Notes under the pieces: generated by a model
What the model was told of the DNA's origin: nothing
Database searches by the model: none
Seen by the model: the letters and a program-made list of their open reading frames with translations, nothing else
In this document: positions 1 to 4,592 of the stretch, one piece after another
Position numbering within the stretch: position 1 is the first letter of the stretch
Layout of the letters: every line of letters starts with the position of its first letter
From: a virus
Virus genome (UHGV): UHGV-1372688
DNA length: 5,010 nt
Strand: one strand, 5' to 3'
Position numbers and translations under genes: made by a program

Positions 1-672
1 CTTAACCACATACTTAGTAACATAAGAAACAGTACTCTCATATACTTCTCCAAGAGTTACAAATCCTAAAGGCATATAATCATATTTTTCTCCATTAGCT
101 TGCCTTGTATTAGGATAATCTTTATGAAATTTTTTCATCTGTTTTTTAAATTCTTTCTTATCTCTTTCAAGTTCAACATCTCGCCAACATTCTTCAACAA
201 ATTGACTTCTATACTGCTTAAAACCTTTATCAGTAGAACTCCATTTCTTTAAATCTTCTGGTTTCCAACCATAAATAATAACATGGAAATGTGGTCTTTC
301 ATTCTCTGTACCATATTCAGCACCACAAATATACTTAATTTTAATATCTTTAGAAATATGGGTTTCAATTTTTTTTCTTAATCTCTTCATAAATTTTTGA
401 AATTCTGCATGGTCTAACTGTCCATTAGGAAAAACTTTTTTTTCACAAAAAGGATTTACAGTCAAGTTTAACAAAAAACATCTTTGAGAGCCATACTTCT
501 GAAACTCTGCTCTAGCTCTTACAGTATAATTTGACTTTCTAGCCTTTTTACACTCATGACACTTACCACAAGATACCCAAATAGCTCTATTTATATCACA
601 ATCTGGAGTATCATTTATTTGATATTTTTTATCTCTCATATTCCAATACATAAGAATTGGACTTGTACACAT
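1..672 (-). CDS. VP4: Rolling-circle replication initiator (Microviridae VP4/Rep, phiX gpA-like). 5' partial in window coordinates: the C-terminus continues beyond position 1. ATG at 672..670.
   Basis: Hand translation of the minus strand from the ATG at 672 gives 224 aa open to the window edge. The stop immediately upstream is TGA at 687..685. It begins MCTSPILMYWNMRDKKYQINDTPDCDINRAIWVSCGKCHECKK. It contains RCR motif I (CFLLNLTV, FLTLT-like), the HUH motif II (RPHFHVIIYG), and a two-tyrosine motif III (YVTKYVVK) at window positions ~24..1. There is an N-terminal Cys cluster C-x10-C-x2-C-H-x-C. The SD is GAGGTG (683..678 minus) with an 8-nt spacer. It is not in the ORF track because it has no stop inside the window. 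Confidence 0.85.
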   Translation of the reverse strand, partial: MCTSPILMYWNMRDKKYQINDTPDCDINRAIWVSCGKCHECKKARKSNYTVRARAEFQKYGSQRCFLLNLTVNPFCEKKVFPNGQLDHAEFQKFMKRLRKKIETHISKDIKIKYICGAEYGTENERPHFHVIIYGWKPEDLKKWSSTDKGFKQYRSQFVEECWRDVELERDKKEFKKQMKKFHKDYPNTRQANGEKYDYMPLGFVTLGEVYESTVSYVTKYVVK

Positions 673-709: not shown

Positions 710-738
710 ATAATATCATAAAACTAAAAAAAAGTAAA
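710..738 (-). promoter_or_regulatory. Candidate sigma70-type promoter for the Rep gene (TTTACT -N17- TATTAT, with a TG in the extended -10 position)
   Basis: The minus strand reads TCTTTACTTTTTTTTAGTTTTATGATATTATC. The -35-like TTTACT is at 738..733. The 17-nt spacer ends in TGA. The -10 TATTAT is at 715..710, about 40 nt upstream of the Rep ATG. AT-rich DNA makes chance matches common, hence the low confidence. Confidence 0.25.
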
Positions 739-805
739 GAATAAAAATTTTATATTGTCGCTAACGCTCCATTTTAAAGGGTTAGAAAAGAGTTTATAAA
801 AATTT

Positions 806-913
806 GGTGTCATGCCGCCGTTATATGAACAAGTATACACGGCGGCTGCTTTGGTAACAAACAAGCAGCTAAAGCATGACATATAGTTGTTAATAACAAC
901 ACCGCTAAAGCGG
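806..913. other. Cluster of nested G/C-rich inverted repeats (candidate three-way junction plus flanking hairpins). Possible origin, packaging or regulatory element.
   Basis: Read directly from the sequence. Outer stem gtcatgc 809-815 / gcatgac 874-880. Inner hairpin A gccgccgt 814-821 / acggcggc 839-846 with a 17-nt loop. Inner hairpin B gctgctt 845-851 / aagcagc 863-869. Near-palindrome gttgtta-a-taacaac 886-900. Tetraloop hairpin ccgc-taaa-gcgg 902-913. ggtgt 806-810 can pair with acacc 899-903. G/C content is visibly higher than in the flanking ~30% GC genome. Confidence 0.45.
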
Positions 914-926
914 ACGGACAACTCAC

Positions 927-973
927 TTGACTTAGACAACAAAATTTAAAAGTCCTTGTTGACCTCAACAAAA
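927..973. repeat. Imperfect direct repeat TTGAC-N(2-5)-CAACAAAA, two copies about 32 nt apart (iteron-like)
   Basis: Copy 1 is ttgac 927-931 plus caacaaaa 937-944. Copy 2 is ttgac 959-963 plus caacaaaa 966-973. Seen directly. Function unknown. Confidence 0.3.
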
Positions 974-980
974 CGATTTA

Positions 981-993
981 GCACCTGCGGTGC
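981..993. other. Short G/C hairpin gcacc-tgc-ggtgc
   Basis: Inverted repeat 981-985 / 989-993 with a 3-nt loop, inside the structured intergenic region. Confidence 0.2.
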
Positions 994-1023
994 GGTATAG
1001 GGTTAAGCTAGGGGACTCAGCAT

Positions 1024-1055
1024 AATAAAAAAAGCAAGTCGCACACATGCGACTT
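1024..1055 (-). terminator. Rho-independent terminator downstream of the 131-aa gene (on the minus strand)
   Basis: Eight-bp stem aagtcgca 1036-1043 / tgcgactt 1048-1055 with loop caca. On the minus strand it is followed immediately by GC-TTTTTTT-ATTAT (plus A-run 1027-1033). It lies 21 nt after the TAG stop at 1076-1078. Confidence 0.7.
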
Positions 1056-1075
1056 ACTCATATACATTATCTTGC

Positions 1076-3161: not shown

Positions 3162-3349
3162 TACACCTCATCTCCTCTCTTTATACTCTCAAGCATTCCT
3201 TGACACTTCCAAATAGATAAAATTTTAGGTTTTTGTCTTATAAAACCTTTTTTATACAAAGTATTAAAAGTAATATAATTATCAATAGTATCTTTTATTC
3301 TACTAATCAAATTACCAACTCCATTCAATTTTAGGTCTATCCTCAACAA
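3161..3349 (-). CDS. Doubtful 62-aa ORF. The 'M' start is really TTG and there is no upstream ATG. It overlaps the VP2 3' end.
   Basis: ORF-track entry. The codon at 3349..3347 is TTG, and the only Met is 12 aa from the end. There is no convincing SD. Its TAA stop overlaps the ATG of the 32-aa micro-ORF (TAATG). It is listed for completeness. Confidence 0.1.
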   Translation of the reverse strand: MLRIDLKLNGVGNLISRIKDTIDNYITFNTLYKKGFIRQKPKILSIWKCQGMLESIKRGDEV

Positions 3350-4053: not shown

Positions 4054-4069
4054 GTCGCACAAGTGCGAC
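4054..4069 (-). other. Hairpin gtcgca-caag-tgcgac (7 bp possible) between the micro-ORF stop and the VP2 SD. Same stem sequence as the terminator at 1036-1055, but without a U-tract.
   Basis: Inverted repeat 4054-4059 / 4064-4069. On the minus strand: CCATAA-gttt-GTCGCACTTGTGCGAC-ttacttgaAAGGAGttattATG. Candidate attenuator, partial terminator or mRNA-stability hairpin. Confidence 0.35.
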
Positions 4070-4262: not shown

Positions 4263-4592
4263 CTATTTTTCATCACCTCCAAACCTCTTAATTAATGAAT
4301 CTATATAAGGAATATCAGATTCCAAACACATATTAGAAAATTTATATCTTCTTAACAGAACAACAACATCATACATTTTAACTTCTCTATCTCTTTCATC
4401 TAAATCTAATCTTTTCATAGGAATAGACTTAAAATCAAGTATCATTCTCTGAGACATTTCATCAATATGACAACAATAACCATACTCATTCAAAATTTCT
4501 AACTCATCACCAAAACAATCTGAAGATACATTAGCCAAAGAATAATAACCTTTTCTTTCTAAATCTCTAATTTTAGCTTTCAAATTATCCAT
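4263..4592 (-). CDS. Hypothetical 109-aa acidic protein. Start corrected to ATG 4592; the 172-aa track ORF is an upstream over-extension into the preceding gene.
   Basis: Met64 of the 172-aa ORF has SD GAGGTG 5 nt upstream (AAATATAGAGGTGTTTAT-ATG). This SD overlaps the TAG stop of the upstream ORF at 4603-4605. The N-terminal 63 aa of the longer version are I/K/L-rich low-complexity sequence overlapping the upstream gene out of frame. Function unknown; possibly a scaffold or VP5-like accessory protein. Confidence 0.5.
   Translation of the reverse strand: MDNLKAKIRDLERKGYYSLANVSSDCFGDELEILNEYGYCCHIDEMSQRMILDFKSIPMKRLDLDERDREVKMYDVVVLLRRYKFSNMCLESDIPYIDSLIKRFGGDEK

Follow-up and report, generated by a model that had tools for sequence, protein, structure and literature searches.

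A conserved hairpin and adjoining box upstream of Rep, a probable viral-strand replication origin of gokushoviruses

The window analysed here, i.e. the whole stretch of 5,010 nt, is the complete genome of a gokushovirus; its circularity was shown, and every gene is carried on its minus strand. The Rep (VP4) gene starts with an ATG at position 672 and encodes a protein that contains an HUH motif (PHFHVII) and a two-tyrosine motif (YVTKYVVK) and that matched PF23343. The cluster of inverted repeats described below lies in an intergenic region of 403 nt. A sequence-only reading of this DNA had pointed to a G/C-rich cluster in a genome of ~30% GC, located between the terminator of the late genes and the Rep promoter, and both observations were borne out. 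The G+C content is 0.39–0.46 over positions 751–1150 vs. about 0.30 in the rest of the genome, and the cluster is flanked by a terminator-like hairpin (1059–1032) and a promoter-like site (738–710). The former, which was the only site detected in the genome by the terminator scan, closes the late gene block VP2-VP1-VP3 and forms the upstream boundary of the non-coding spacer, and the latter sits between the hairpin H1 and the Rep start codon. The features of the locus are as follows.

1–672, minus strand: 5′ two-thirds of the Rep (VP4) gene, which runs on across the circle to 5010–4603 (359 aa in total).
710–738, minus strand: promoter-like site (TTTACT, 17 nt, TG-TATTAT), identified by consensus match only.
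806–813, minus strand: ATGACACC box, directly 3′ of H1 on the viral strand; presumed Rep-binding 'key' sequence.
814–846, minus strand: H1, the conserved core hairpin; viral strand GCCGCCGT-gtataCTTGttcatata-ACGGCGGC.
845–869, minus strand: H2, the second arm of the junction; viral strand GCTGCTT-gtttgttacca-AAGCAGC.
874–881, minus strand: outer stem, 5′ arm; viral strand TGTCATGC; repeats part of the CATGACA box in inverted orientation and closes the junction.
886–900, no strand assigned: near-palindrome GTTGTTAATAACAAC (arms 886–892/894–900), specific to the window.
898–921, minus strand: GTCC-GTCCGCTTTAG-CGGTG; 3′ half, in degenerate form, of another conserved element.
1032–1059, minus strand: intrinsic-terminator-like hairpin followed by a T run, identified by terminator scan and folding.

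All of the inverted repeats that had been read from the sequence were recovered in the inverted-repeat listing. The arms of H1 (814–821/839–846) and H2 (845–851/863–869) form perfect stems of 8 and 7 bp, respectively, and the outer stem (809–815/874–880) lengthens to 8 bp (808–815/874–881). These arms share 2 nt at 814–815 and again at 845–846, overlaps that the minimum-energy fold settles into a clean three-way junction. The junction that had been suggested as a candidate was thus obtained by single-stranded DNA folding at 808–881 on both strands, with z-scores of about −5 to −6. The region 800–920 folded at −27.8 kcal/mol on the minus strand (z = −6.05) and at −28.2 kcal/mol on the plus strand (z = −5.81), with none of 200 shuffled sequences being as stable in either case, and the same structures remained when the whole 403-nt intergenic region was folded. 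Single inverted repeats of 7–8 bp are not rare in this AT-rich spacer, in which 47 pairs were listed, and the significance of the cluster therefore rests on nesting and conservation. When H1 was fixed and the upstream arm alone was shuffled, the z-score in the window was −3.3 (1 of 300 shuffles folded as well). Conditional on H1, the folding added by H2 and the outer stem was significant in both the window and the related locus L288.

The loop of H1 is reduced to 8 nt, CTTGTTCA, by inner TATA/TATA pairs, and its CTTG corresponds to window positions 833–830 on the minus strand. GACAC starts 18 nt past this CTTG, and the ATGACACC box also makes the 3′ arm of the outer stem. A covariance model of the element had a single match in the window (804–850, minus strand; 32.6 bits, E = 2e-5), and the match to the pattern CTTG-N14-21-GACAC was likewise unique in the genome on either strand. 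In comparison with the closest relative, KT264834, the segment 806–881 is identical at 72 of 76 positions vs. 78–83% in the neighbouring spacer, and no similarity is found past position 888; the origin block is co-inherited with Rep across a recombination breakpoint.

The loci of relatives were found with an alignment of five Reps, a single Rep query having found none. Among 180 Rep-anchored loci, CTTG-N14-21-GACAC had 126 occurrences on the Rep strand and 17 on the opposite one. Of the 126, about 110 lie in perfect hairpins of 6–14 bp, whereas chance matches have stems of 2–5 bp. Loci matched by the covariance model had one match each (E up to 0.01) and came from 87 of 100 sources and 44 of another 92. 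These matches lie on the Rep-coding strand at 128 of the 131 loci, the three exceptions being prophage-like. Several clade-B loci gave no match to the model, and those that were inspected had little upstream DNA or an extra ORF at this position. The median distance from the element to the Rep ATG is 316 nt (106 loci), and the distance in the window is 142 nt.

The stems differ completely among clades yet stay paired, e.g. GCCGCCGT, CTCGCCGTT, AAGGGGCGTAAT, GGGCATATA, GGCCCAGTTAAC, AGCACAGTTAC, and CCTGGCACCATTAC. The covariation score was 0.356, in comparison with 0.128 ± 0.014 for shuffles (0 of 500 reached 0.356) and at most 0.153 for slid partners, and double changes were seen at 9 of the 10 stem pairs, although the pair counts are somewhat inflated because the structure itself guided the covariance-model alignment. 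The covariation analysis that the sequence-only reading had named as a check, together with conservation in related microviruses as the point on which its proposal would stand or fall, thus gave a conserved core hairpin with massive covariation of the stem.

The loop keeps (T)ACTTG(A/T)T, in which CTTG is invariant. Among 80 distinct origin sequences, the base right after CTTG is A in 63 and the second base is T in 76; in the clade of the window, T follows CTTG. TGACAC is present 16–18 nt after CTTG in all 80 sequences, with a T before GACAC in 80 and a C after it in 66, neither of these positions having been imposed by the search. The isolates Chp2, phiMH2K, and SpV4 possess the same hairpin with an ACTTG(A/T)T loop in an intergenic position upstream of Rep, and the 3′ box is degenerate in these three cultured isolates (GTGATAGC, CACAG, and TTGACGAC). 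The window contains every component of this gokushovirus-wide element: a hairpin within the range of 6–14 bp, the ACTTG(A/T)T loop, and TGACAC at the conserved spacing, on the Rep strand and in a single copy.

The remainder of the junction is distributed far more narrowly. H2, which contains a second CTTGT motif (865–861), is identical in KT264834, and in L288 it reads GTTGATT...AATCAAC, in which two pairs have changed on both sides, one from C-G to T-A and the other from C-G to A-T, and remain paired; the loop is conserved. H2 is absent from L289, L290, MG945678, L292, and L294. KT264834 and L295 (GTCATGC) retain the 5′ arm of the outer stem, as does L288, where GTCATCCC pairs with GGGATGAC; in L289, this arm stacks straight onto H1. 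H2 and the outer stem together were supported in the window, KT264834, and L288 only, being absent or non-significant in L290, MG945678, L292, and L294. An upstream inverted copy of the box was also considered as a general gokushovirus trait and rejected, copies of at least 6 nt occurring upstream in 7 of 80 sequences and downstream in 18 of 80. Of the cluster that had been read as one unit, the core formed by H1 and ATGACACC is conserved, and the other parts of the junction are supported only in the three genomes named. It is H1 with its ATGACACC box that constitutes the conserved functional unit, and the three-way junction around H1 is a local, lineage-specific embellishment.

Two further structures had been included in the cluster, and both are present in the window. 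The near-palindrome at 886–900 is specific to the window and lies outside the block shared with KT264834, the homology to which ends at ~888. Sites of the dif/XerCD type are known in enterogokushovirus prophages (PMC7062461). A dif site was taken to be about 28 bp long, with two 11-nt arms and a 6-nt spacer, and to resemble the host dif; the palindrome, which has a 1-nt centre and is window-specific, was judged on its geometry and lack of conservation to be an unlikely site of this type. The hairpin ccgc-taaa-gcgg at 902–913 is not conserved as a local structure; a second conserved element is present here as a degenerate copy, and the hairpin is its 3′ part. In relatives, this element is a long hairpin with an unpaired GTCTTTAG bulge, and its strict two-helix form, in which the helices covary, was found in L124/L125, L126, L213, L290, and L292/L294; a direct two-helix search did not find the strict form in the window. 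RNAalifold applied to a MAFFT alignment of the element returned no structure because the 5′ arms were misaligned. TTAGCG-like motifs recur in the window at 903–911 and 759–767. Single-strand origins of the ssoA type contain an RSB element and CS-6 (TAGCGT) in a long hairpin. The long hairpin of the relatives has a GTCTTTAG(C/T)G bulge, and no canonical RSB or CS-6 was identified.

Searches beyond the Rep-anchored loci were also performed. The loose pattern CGTNNNATGAACAAGTA gave only chance matches in coding DNA when scanned over viral contigs, and a stricter clade-specific pattern gave none in the same contigs. The clade hairpin had 17 matches in 185,579 species genomes, which look like chance occurrences because none precedes an ATGACAC box; no prophage copy was found in these genomes, and they therefore give no clue to the host.

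The closest known counterpart of the element is the origin of phiX174, a member of the same virus family, which reads CAACTTG^ATATTAATAACACTATAGACCAC (the caret marking the nick). This origin is annotated at 4306 inside gene A, with GACCAC starting 17 nt past the nick. All of its 30 nt recur, without a single difference, in the divergent bullavirus Lilleen. In phiX174, cleavage occurs at G4305/A4306, and synonymous changes from Q107 to D115, a span that covers CAACTTG...GAC, are detrimental (bioRxiv 10.64898/2026.07.25.740675). The A protein of phiX174 carries LHFHAVHF and YVAKYVNK where the Rep of the window carries PHFHVII and YVTKYVVK. In both genomes, an ACTTG core followed by (A/T)T lies on the viral strand (TACTTG-TTCA in the loop of the window), a GAC(C)AC box follows the nick after 17 nt in phiX174 and 18 nt in the window (GACACC), and the element is present in a single copy. 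The two nevertheless differ in several respects. The spacer of phiX174 is AT-rich and unstructured, with no hairpin, whereas that of the window, rich in G+C, forms the 3′ arm of a hairpin; the phiX174 origin is within the Rep gene, whereas the element of the window is intergenic and upstream of Rep; and the base that follows the nick is A in phiX174 and T in the clade of the window. The covariance model gave no match to phiX174. Because they differ in spacer and location, the element is regarded as a variant of the phiX174 origin and not as the same element.

Similarities to other replicons are more general. In the origins of CRESS-DNA viruses and of pT181- and pMV158-type plasmids, the nick motif is also placed in the loop of a G+C-rich hairpin near a Rep-binding sequence, and the stem covaries while the loop is fixed. 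The CRESS-DNA loop motif is, however, NANTATTAC rather than ACTTGWT, and the Rep of the window belongs to a different family, being of the two-tyrosine phiX A type with no fused SF3 helicase. A CRESS-type nonanucleotide stem-loop origin was rejected for the window, the loop being CTTGTTCA and not NANTATTAC, and no iterons being present: tandem repeats of the box were not found in the window, which has one inverted partial copy only. Plasmid origins of the pC194/pUB110 family have the nick motif CTTG^ATA, and most gokushovirus hairpins have the CTTGAT core of this motif in their loop, but the plasmid Reps belong to another Pfam family and the plasmid origins have another layout. In Ff phages (M13/f1), the intergenic hairpins hold the packaging signal, the (−) origin, and the (+) origin. 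The window resembles these phages in having a non-coding spacer past a terminator with several adjacent hairpins, one of which contains a Rep nick site (predicted here), although there is no sequence relationship and the virions are of another type; Ff-like roles for the other hairpins of the window are speculative. Within the microviruses, hairpins between the capsid and Rep genes have been described in reekeekee- and roodoodoo-microviruses, for which negative-strand initiation was discussed and the function left open (PMC9865509). Like the element studied here, these hairpins are intergenic, upstream of Rep, have a conserved loop and compensatory stem changes, and were detected by a similar type of analysis, but they belong to other microvirus clades; the comparison was made from their published description (PMC9865509).

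On these grounds, H1 (814–846) together with the ATGACACC box (806–813) is probably the viral-strand (+) rolling-circle origin of this gokushovirus and would be a hairpin-borne counterpart of the phiX174 origin. The sequence-only reading had suggested a replication origin, an origin of complementary-strand synthesis, or a packaging signal; a structured origin in the Rep-proximal spacer is retained from it, and of these functions the evidence favours a viral-strand origin nicked by Rep. Folding alone does not tell the strand, since the hairpin folds equally well on both, and a viral-strand origin is favoured because the nick motif of phiX174 lies in the loop on the coding strand and is followed by a phiX-like box at a phiX-like spacing. 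Rep, an HUH endonuclease with two adjacent catalytic tyrosines, would bind the TGACAC box on the supercoiled double-stranded replicative form, and the inverted repeat would let the nick motif become single-stranded in the loop. By analogy with the annotated phiX174 position, the predicted Rep cut in the viral strand follows the G of ACTTG^TT and falls between window positions 830 and 829 (minus strand); Rep would remain on the 5′ end while the 3′-OH primes leading-strand synthesis. After one round, the second tyrosine would cut and join the hairpin regenerated on the displaced strand, and a circle would be released to be packaged. Both H2 and the outer stem would be accessory structures, specific to this lineage, that form in single-stranded DNA alone, where the TGACA box is paired with its upstream inverted copy; masking of the box, termination or packaging, and help in complementary-strand priming are candidate roles.

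The three-way junction might instead be the complementary-strand (−) origin, recognized on the packaged single strand by host RNA polymerase or primase, for which the phiX174 F-G hairpin, bound by PriA, and the Ff intergenic hairpins are models. Every microvirus needs such a site, a strong nested fold is predicted on the viral single strand, H2 and the outer stem add significant folding to that of H1 in the window and L288, and the capsid-Rep hairpins of other clades have been so interpreted, with reservations (PMC9865509). This explanation is nevertheless unlikely: conservation across the subfamily extends to a loop sequence and a box of the same kind as the nick and key motifs of phiX174 and is not one of shape alone, and outside a small subclade the components of the junction are not preserved. 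Relatives also hold a better candidate right after the terminator, i.e. the long hairpin with covarying helices and a GTCTTTAG bulge, and this second conserved hairpin, upstream in the relatives of the window, could be the (−) origin. The two roles are not exclusive, as H2 and the outer stem could serve as the (−) origin and H1 as the nick site. Somewhat less likely still, the element might be recognized by a phage protein other than Rep (the capsid, or a DNA-binding protein of VP5 or VP8 type) as a site for binding or packaging, independently of Rep nicking. A conserved loop and box would fit any sequence-specific protein, but the identity to the phiX174 nick motif and the co-inheritance with Rep across the recombination breakpoint point to Rep. 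The phiX174 origin also suffices for packaging, since synthesis and packaging are coupled, and if packaging is Rep-coupled as in phiX174, a packaging signal would be no real rival.

An element acting at the RNA level, such as a terminator, attenuator, stabilizer, or translational regulator upstream of Rep or the next gene, is improbable. It would accord with the location on the coding strand, with the ribosome-binding site (AAGGAG) and start codon that come straight after TGACACC in many relatives, and with the presence of TTGACA, the −35 consensus, in 16 of the 80 sequences. However, H1 is followed by ATGACACCAAA and not by a T run, which excludes it as an intrinsic terminator, and the terminator scan yielded 1059–1032 alone. 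TTGACA is found in a minority of sequences and the window has no −10 at the right distance, and TGACA was accordingly rejected as a −35 hexamer; moreover, a structural RNA would not need an invariant CTTG loop that matches a DNA nick site. The element of the window is probably little transcribed because it lies downstream of the terminator and upstream of the promoter-like site. Rfam 15 gave no family match at the gathering score in 673–1075, with only a sub-threshold match of a miRNA model to the terminator hairpin, and nothing in six relatives, and a tRNA scan found nothing relevant. There is hardly any likelihood that the cluster arose by chance or that an ORF (724–942, minus strand, 72 aa) lies behind the conservation. 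Inverted repeats are indeed numerous in the spacer and the ORF spans the region on the coding strand, but the fold z-scores of −5 to −6 and the conservation and covariation over about 130 loci argue against chance; the ORF, which has a TTG start, was rejected, its frame being broken in KT264834 by stops on both sides of the hairpins.

A broader reading joins two proposals: that all Gokushovirinae share a hairpin-borne phiX-type origin and that the junction in this lineage is a strand-state switch. In the shared origin, ACTTG^WT would lie in the loop and the TGACAC box 16–18 nt downstream. In single-stranded DNA, the upstream inverted copy would hide the Rep-binding box and H2 would be a priming or termination structure, and in the duplex replicative form the box would be exposed and H1 would extrude for nicking. 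As a combination, this reading is tentative and rather doubtful.

Gokushoviruses are among the most abundant ssDNA phages in gut and marine samples. No description of a gokushovirus origin was found in the open-access literature, older subscription literature lying outside the search, and the database reference entries for Chp2, phiMH2K, and SpV4 have no annotated origin; the sequence-only reading had remarked that this origin is not known to be experimentally defined. The viral-strand origin proposed here amounts to a prediction for the whole subfamily that specifies one site per genome, its strand, the nick to the nucleotide, and the binding box. It would link the origin of phiX174, which has no hairpin, to the hairpin-borne origins that are typical of other HUH replicons, provide a reference point for the orientation and annotation of the thousands of microvirus genomes from metagenomes, and suggest the minimal cis elements for gokushovirus-based vectors. 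If the joint reading were true, the ssDNA phage group of greatest abundance would gain the defined origin that it has so far lacked.

The window is a complete circular genome of 5,010 bases, as indicated by a 55-nt terminal repeat in the source contig (ENA ERZ1689551, 5,065 nt), of whose unit it is an exact rotation in reverse complement. All long ORFs are located on the window minus strand. As a rule, Microviridae package mRNA-sense DNA, which makes the window minus strand the viral one.

Genes and signals identified in the window
4049-3312, minus strand, VP2-like protein
3063-1480, minus strand, major capsid protein VP1 (Pfam Phage_F)
1471-1076, minus strand, scaffold protein VP3 (Chlamy_scaf)
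672 past position 1, then 5010-4603, minus strand, replication protein Rep/VP4, 359 aa (PF23343)
1075-673, non-coding spacer
1059-1032, terminator-like site (stem plus T run) at the spacer start, the sole such site in the genome
738-710, promoter-like site at the spacer end, ahead of Rep

The stem GTCGCA/TGCGAC is present twice in the window. The copy at 1038-1053 is the late terminator, with a viral-strand TGTG loop followed by a T run; that at 4054-4069, which closely precedes the ribosome-binding site of VP2, has a viral-strand CTTG tetraloop and no T run. The terminator of the closest relative, KT264834, is GTCGCA-CTTG-TGCGAC. A 12-nt tandem repeat (GGCTCTGGTTGT) at 1081-1135, coding on the minus strand, specifies a (PEPQ)n C-terminal tail of the VP3 scaffold (LEPEPQPEPQPEPQPEPSK); VP3 of KT264834 is 4 aa shorter.

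The sequence-only reading had described a G+C-rich cluster of inverted repeats at 806-913, including a candidate three-way junction, and all of the repeats were found where it had placed them. The minimum-energy ssDNA fold of 800-920 consists, on both strands, of the three-way junction and two small 3' hairpins (z-scores of -6.05 and -5.81; equally stable shuffles, 0/200), and these structures are kept when the whole spacer is folded. The G+C content of the cluster (0.39-0.46) is above that found elsewhere (~0.30), and its position between the late terminator-like site and the promoter-like site ahead of Rep agrees with that proposed. The junction comprises a core hairpin (H1, 814-846), a second arm (H2, 845-869) and an outer stem (808-815/874-881). 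Because the spacer is rich in isolated repeats of 7-8 bp (47 pairs), the extra arms were tested conditionally, by shuffling the 46 nt upstream while H1 and its 3' tail were left intact (300 shuffles); in the window, they are unusually stable (z -3.3, 1/300 shuffles). Between H1 and the Rep promoter, a block (GTCGCTAACGCTCCATTTTAAAGG, 757-781) that is near-identical in KT264834 holds another TTAGCG motif, TTTAGC/TTAGCG being present in three copies in the spacer.

Close relatives of the Rep protein are few.

Relatives of the window by Rep identity
Gokushovirus WZ-2015a KT264834, raccoon, 81%
MG945678, pig faeces, 55%
seven Logan assemblies, 41-60%
second clade, including MG945371, MG945222 and MG945195, 32-39%

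An H1-type hairpin was identified in the spacer upstream of Rep in every close relative where the region is present. The sequence of its G+C-rich stem varies among these relatives (GCCGCCGT, CTCGCCGTT, TCCGCCGTTAT, TCGCCGTA and AAGGGGCGTAAT), its loop is TACTTGTT(C/T)AT (CCTTGTTTTAT in the second clade), and (A)TGACAC lies directly 3' of the hairpin. Compared with the window, MG945678 has two double changes at the stem base, both of which preserve pairing.

A wider scan covered 180 loci from IMG/VR and public metagenomes, anchored on Rep homologues with 22-39% identity. The pattern CTTG-N14-21-GACAC has 126 matches on the Rep strand compared with 17 on the opposite one, and ~110 of the Rep-strand matches lie in perfect hairpins of 6-14 bp (chance matches, 2-5 bp), whose stems are unrelated between clades (GGGCATATA, GCAGGAACAATT, GGCCCAGTTAAC, AGCACAGTTAC, CCTGGCACCATTAC, GTCGGCACA and TCGCCGATATTT). 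With a covariance model derived from 83 sequences, each matching locus had exactly one match, in 87 of 100 sources and in 44 of 92 further sources (the latter at E up to 0.01), all on the Rep strand except in three prophage-like loci. Both sides have changed in 9 of the 10 pairs of the resulting alignment. Covariation across related genomes, the check suggested by the sequence-only reading, was detected for the core hairpin, with a score of 0.356 vs 0.128 +/- 0.014 in shuffles (0/500 reach it) and at most 0.153 with slid partners; this alignment was fitted to the model, which somewhat favours the structure, and the raw per-sequence stems are independent of it. Among 80 distinct sequences, the loop consensus is (T/C)(A/G)CTTG(A/T)T, and the spacing from CTTG to TGACAC is 16 (n = 15), 17 (n = 36) or 18 nt (n = 29). 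T precedes GACAC in 80/80 and C follows in 66/80, both positions having been left free by the search. The hairpin is located a median of 316 nt upstream of the Rep start (122-813 nt in typical layouts; 142 nt in the window). In three classical isolates it is likewise intergenic and upstream of Rep, with a more degenerate 3' box.

Hairpins in classical gokushovirus isolates
Chp2, 2904-2941, loop tctACTTGAT
phiMH2K, 3296-3335, loop ...ctACTTGTTgtaa
SpV4, 512-544, loop attACTTGTTata

Several of the related Rep-anchored loci (L numbers) show further features. In L275, L278 and L281, contigs of 9-149 kb contain regions that resemble microvirus prophages (VP1 and Rep); the hairpin-plus-GACAC motif (L278 3837-3885, minus; L281 3882-3930, minus; also L275), with the loop CCCCTTGTATTTA, lies there on the strand opposite to Rep, no more than ~10 nt from the Rep stop codon. 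The next ORFs beyond the motif are on the other strand in L275 and L281, and the motif may mark the element boundary in these loci. No prophage copy of the clade hairpin was found in 185,579 species genomes. Position 1 of the L189 and L249 contigs falls inside the hairpin loop, at CTTGAT, probably owing to an assembly break at the inverted repeat. Clade-B genomes lacking a covariance-model match differ in what precedes Rep: in L208, a 59-kb contig from human gut, a hairpin at 2605-2627 (AACAAGTAC-tattt-GTACTTGTT) is followed by a T run and has ACTTGTT in its stem, not in its loop, and the box CCACATATAATGTTAATTT is common to L128 and L210-L212. The contigs of L208 and L212 exceed microvirus genome size.

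Hairpins that present a nick motif in the loop are already known from rolling-circle origins, and the origin of phiX174 is a textbook example. The phiX174 record annotates the viral-strand synthesis origin at 4306, in ccccCAACTTG^ATATTAATAACACTATAGACCAC. Complete mutagenesis identified G4305/A4306 as the cleavage site and found synonymous changes to be detrimental in gene A codons Q107 to D115 (bioRxiv 10.64898/2026.07.25.740675), a span that is exactly CAACTTG...GAC. In the divergent bullavirus Lilleen, the 30-nt phiX174 origin is identical and the flanks differ. Since the phiX174 origin and cleavage site fall in CAACTTG^, the gokushovirus loop ACTTG(A/T)T is, judged by sequence, the phiX nick core. 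The TGACAC box takes the position of phiX GACCAC, 16-18 nt after the nick in gokushoviruses (18 nt in the window) and 17 nt in phiX, and a catalytic signature is common to both Reps (LHFHAVHF and Y343-VAK-Y347-VNK in the phiX A protein; PHFHVII and YVTKYVVK in the window Rep). Unlike the gokushoviruses, phiX174 lacks the hairpin and has an AT-rich spacer, and its origin lies inside the Rep gene; the covariance model gave no match to phiX174.

The best-supported reading is that H1 and the ATGACACC box together serve as the origin of the viral strand. In this reading, the box is the binding site of Rep, which would cut the loop 3' of the CTTG guanine (window 830/829, minus strand), and the second tyrosine would then complete the round; binding, nick position and dynamics are inferred by homology. 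The proposal of an origin in the cluster is supported for H1 and the box, which are conserved and carry phiX-type motifs, but not equally for the junction arms, which are lineage-restricted. A role of these accessory arms as a complementary-strand origin is possible, but it leaves the phiX-type loop and box unexplained.

Other assignments were also considered for the region. A terminator is excluded for the hairpin, which has no T run, and no RNA family was found. Stop codons in KT264834 interrupt a 72-aa ORF that spans the region, the palindrome does not fit a dif site, and TGACA as a -35 promoter fits just 16/80 sequences.

KT264834 and the window have the same H2 and outer-stem sequences. 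Both are kept with different sequences in L288 (Rep 60%), where H2 has changed from GCTGCTT/AAGCAGC to GTTGATT/AATCAAC (two compensatory pairs, conserved loop) and the outer stem from TGTCATGC/GCATGACA to GTCATCCC/GGGATGAC; the minimum-energy fold of L288 is again a three-way junction (conditional z -2.45, 8/300 shuffles). L295 keeps GTCATGC...GCATGAC around a different insert, and in L289 GTCA/TGAC is stacked directly on H1. Conditional folding revealed no significant extra fold in L290, MG945678, L292 or L294; these carry a CCCTTGTGG motif ~35-45 nt upstream of H1, at the position of CTTGT inside the window H2. Because no extra fold is significant in these relatives and the subfamily as a whole shows no enrichment of inverted box copies upstream, the junction is a real but lineage-restricted elaboration. 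The putative Rep-binding box is paired within its outer stem, so that the junction could hide the box when the DNA is single-stranded, or could help to prime the complementary strand.

In the relatives, the complementary-strand origin is better sought in a second conserved element than in the junction. This candidate, well defined there, immediately follows the late terminator and forms a long hairpin whose two basal helices covary (helix 1: CGGCA/TGCCG, CGGCG/CGCCG, CGGAG/CTCCG and CACCG/CGGTG; helix 2: GGCG/CGCC, GGCA/TGCC, GGGC/GCCC and GGAC/GTCC). Its GTCTTTAG bulge is unpaired and invariant, its apex is AT-rich and 30-34 nt long, and it has no Rfam match.

Copies of the second element
L124, 4378-4440
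L126, 4646-4709
L213, 1868-1931
L290, 1691-1752
L292, 1621-1678
L294, 140-197
window, 898-994, minus strand, degenerate copy

The window lacks the strict form, the 5' partners being split by an insertion. The hairpin noted at 902-913 is present as part of GTCC-GTCCGCTTTAG-CGGTG, but since this resembles the 3' half of the second element, whose 5' partners are split, it probably represents a variant or a relic of this longer structure. The near-palindrome at 886-900 also exists, but only in the window, outside the block shared with KT264834. A hairpin, GAGTGC-GAATA-GCACTC, followed by A(T)CCCTATACC, was observed in L124 (~4306-4340), L289 and L295, and is near-identical in genomes whose Rep is only ~35-40% identical to that of the window; the window retains only the CCCTATACC box (993-1001, viral strand).

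Window 806-881 is 95% identical (72/76) to KT264834, the four differences being loop-proximal in H1, outside the G+C stem and CTTG core, and the H1 fold is kept in both; the neighbouring spacer is 78-83% identical. The segment 677-888, containing the Rep promoter, origin hairpin and junction, is 78-95% identical, and homology ends sharply at ~888, beyond which there is no similarity. This sequence pattern suggests that Rep and its putative origin are inherited or exchanged together as a module.

Conserved hairpins have been reported in two other microvirus clades, with their function left open (PMC9865509). No description of the hairpin as a gokushovirus origin was found in the open literature, older subscription work on Chp1, SpV4 and Chp2 lying outside the search; large comparative studies mention no origin, and none is annotated in the Chp2, phiMH2K and SpV4 reference records. 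The three-way junction itself is of narrower interest, and the hairpin with its box provides a nucleotide-precise, easily tested prediction for the whole of this abundant subfamily.
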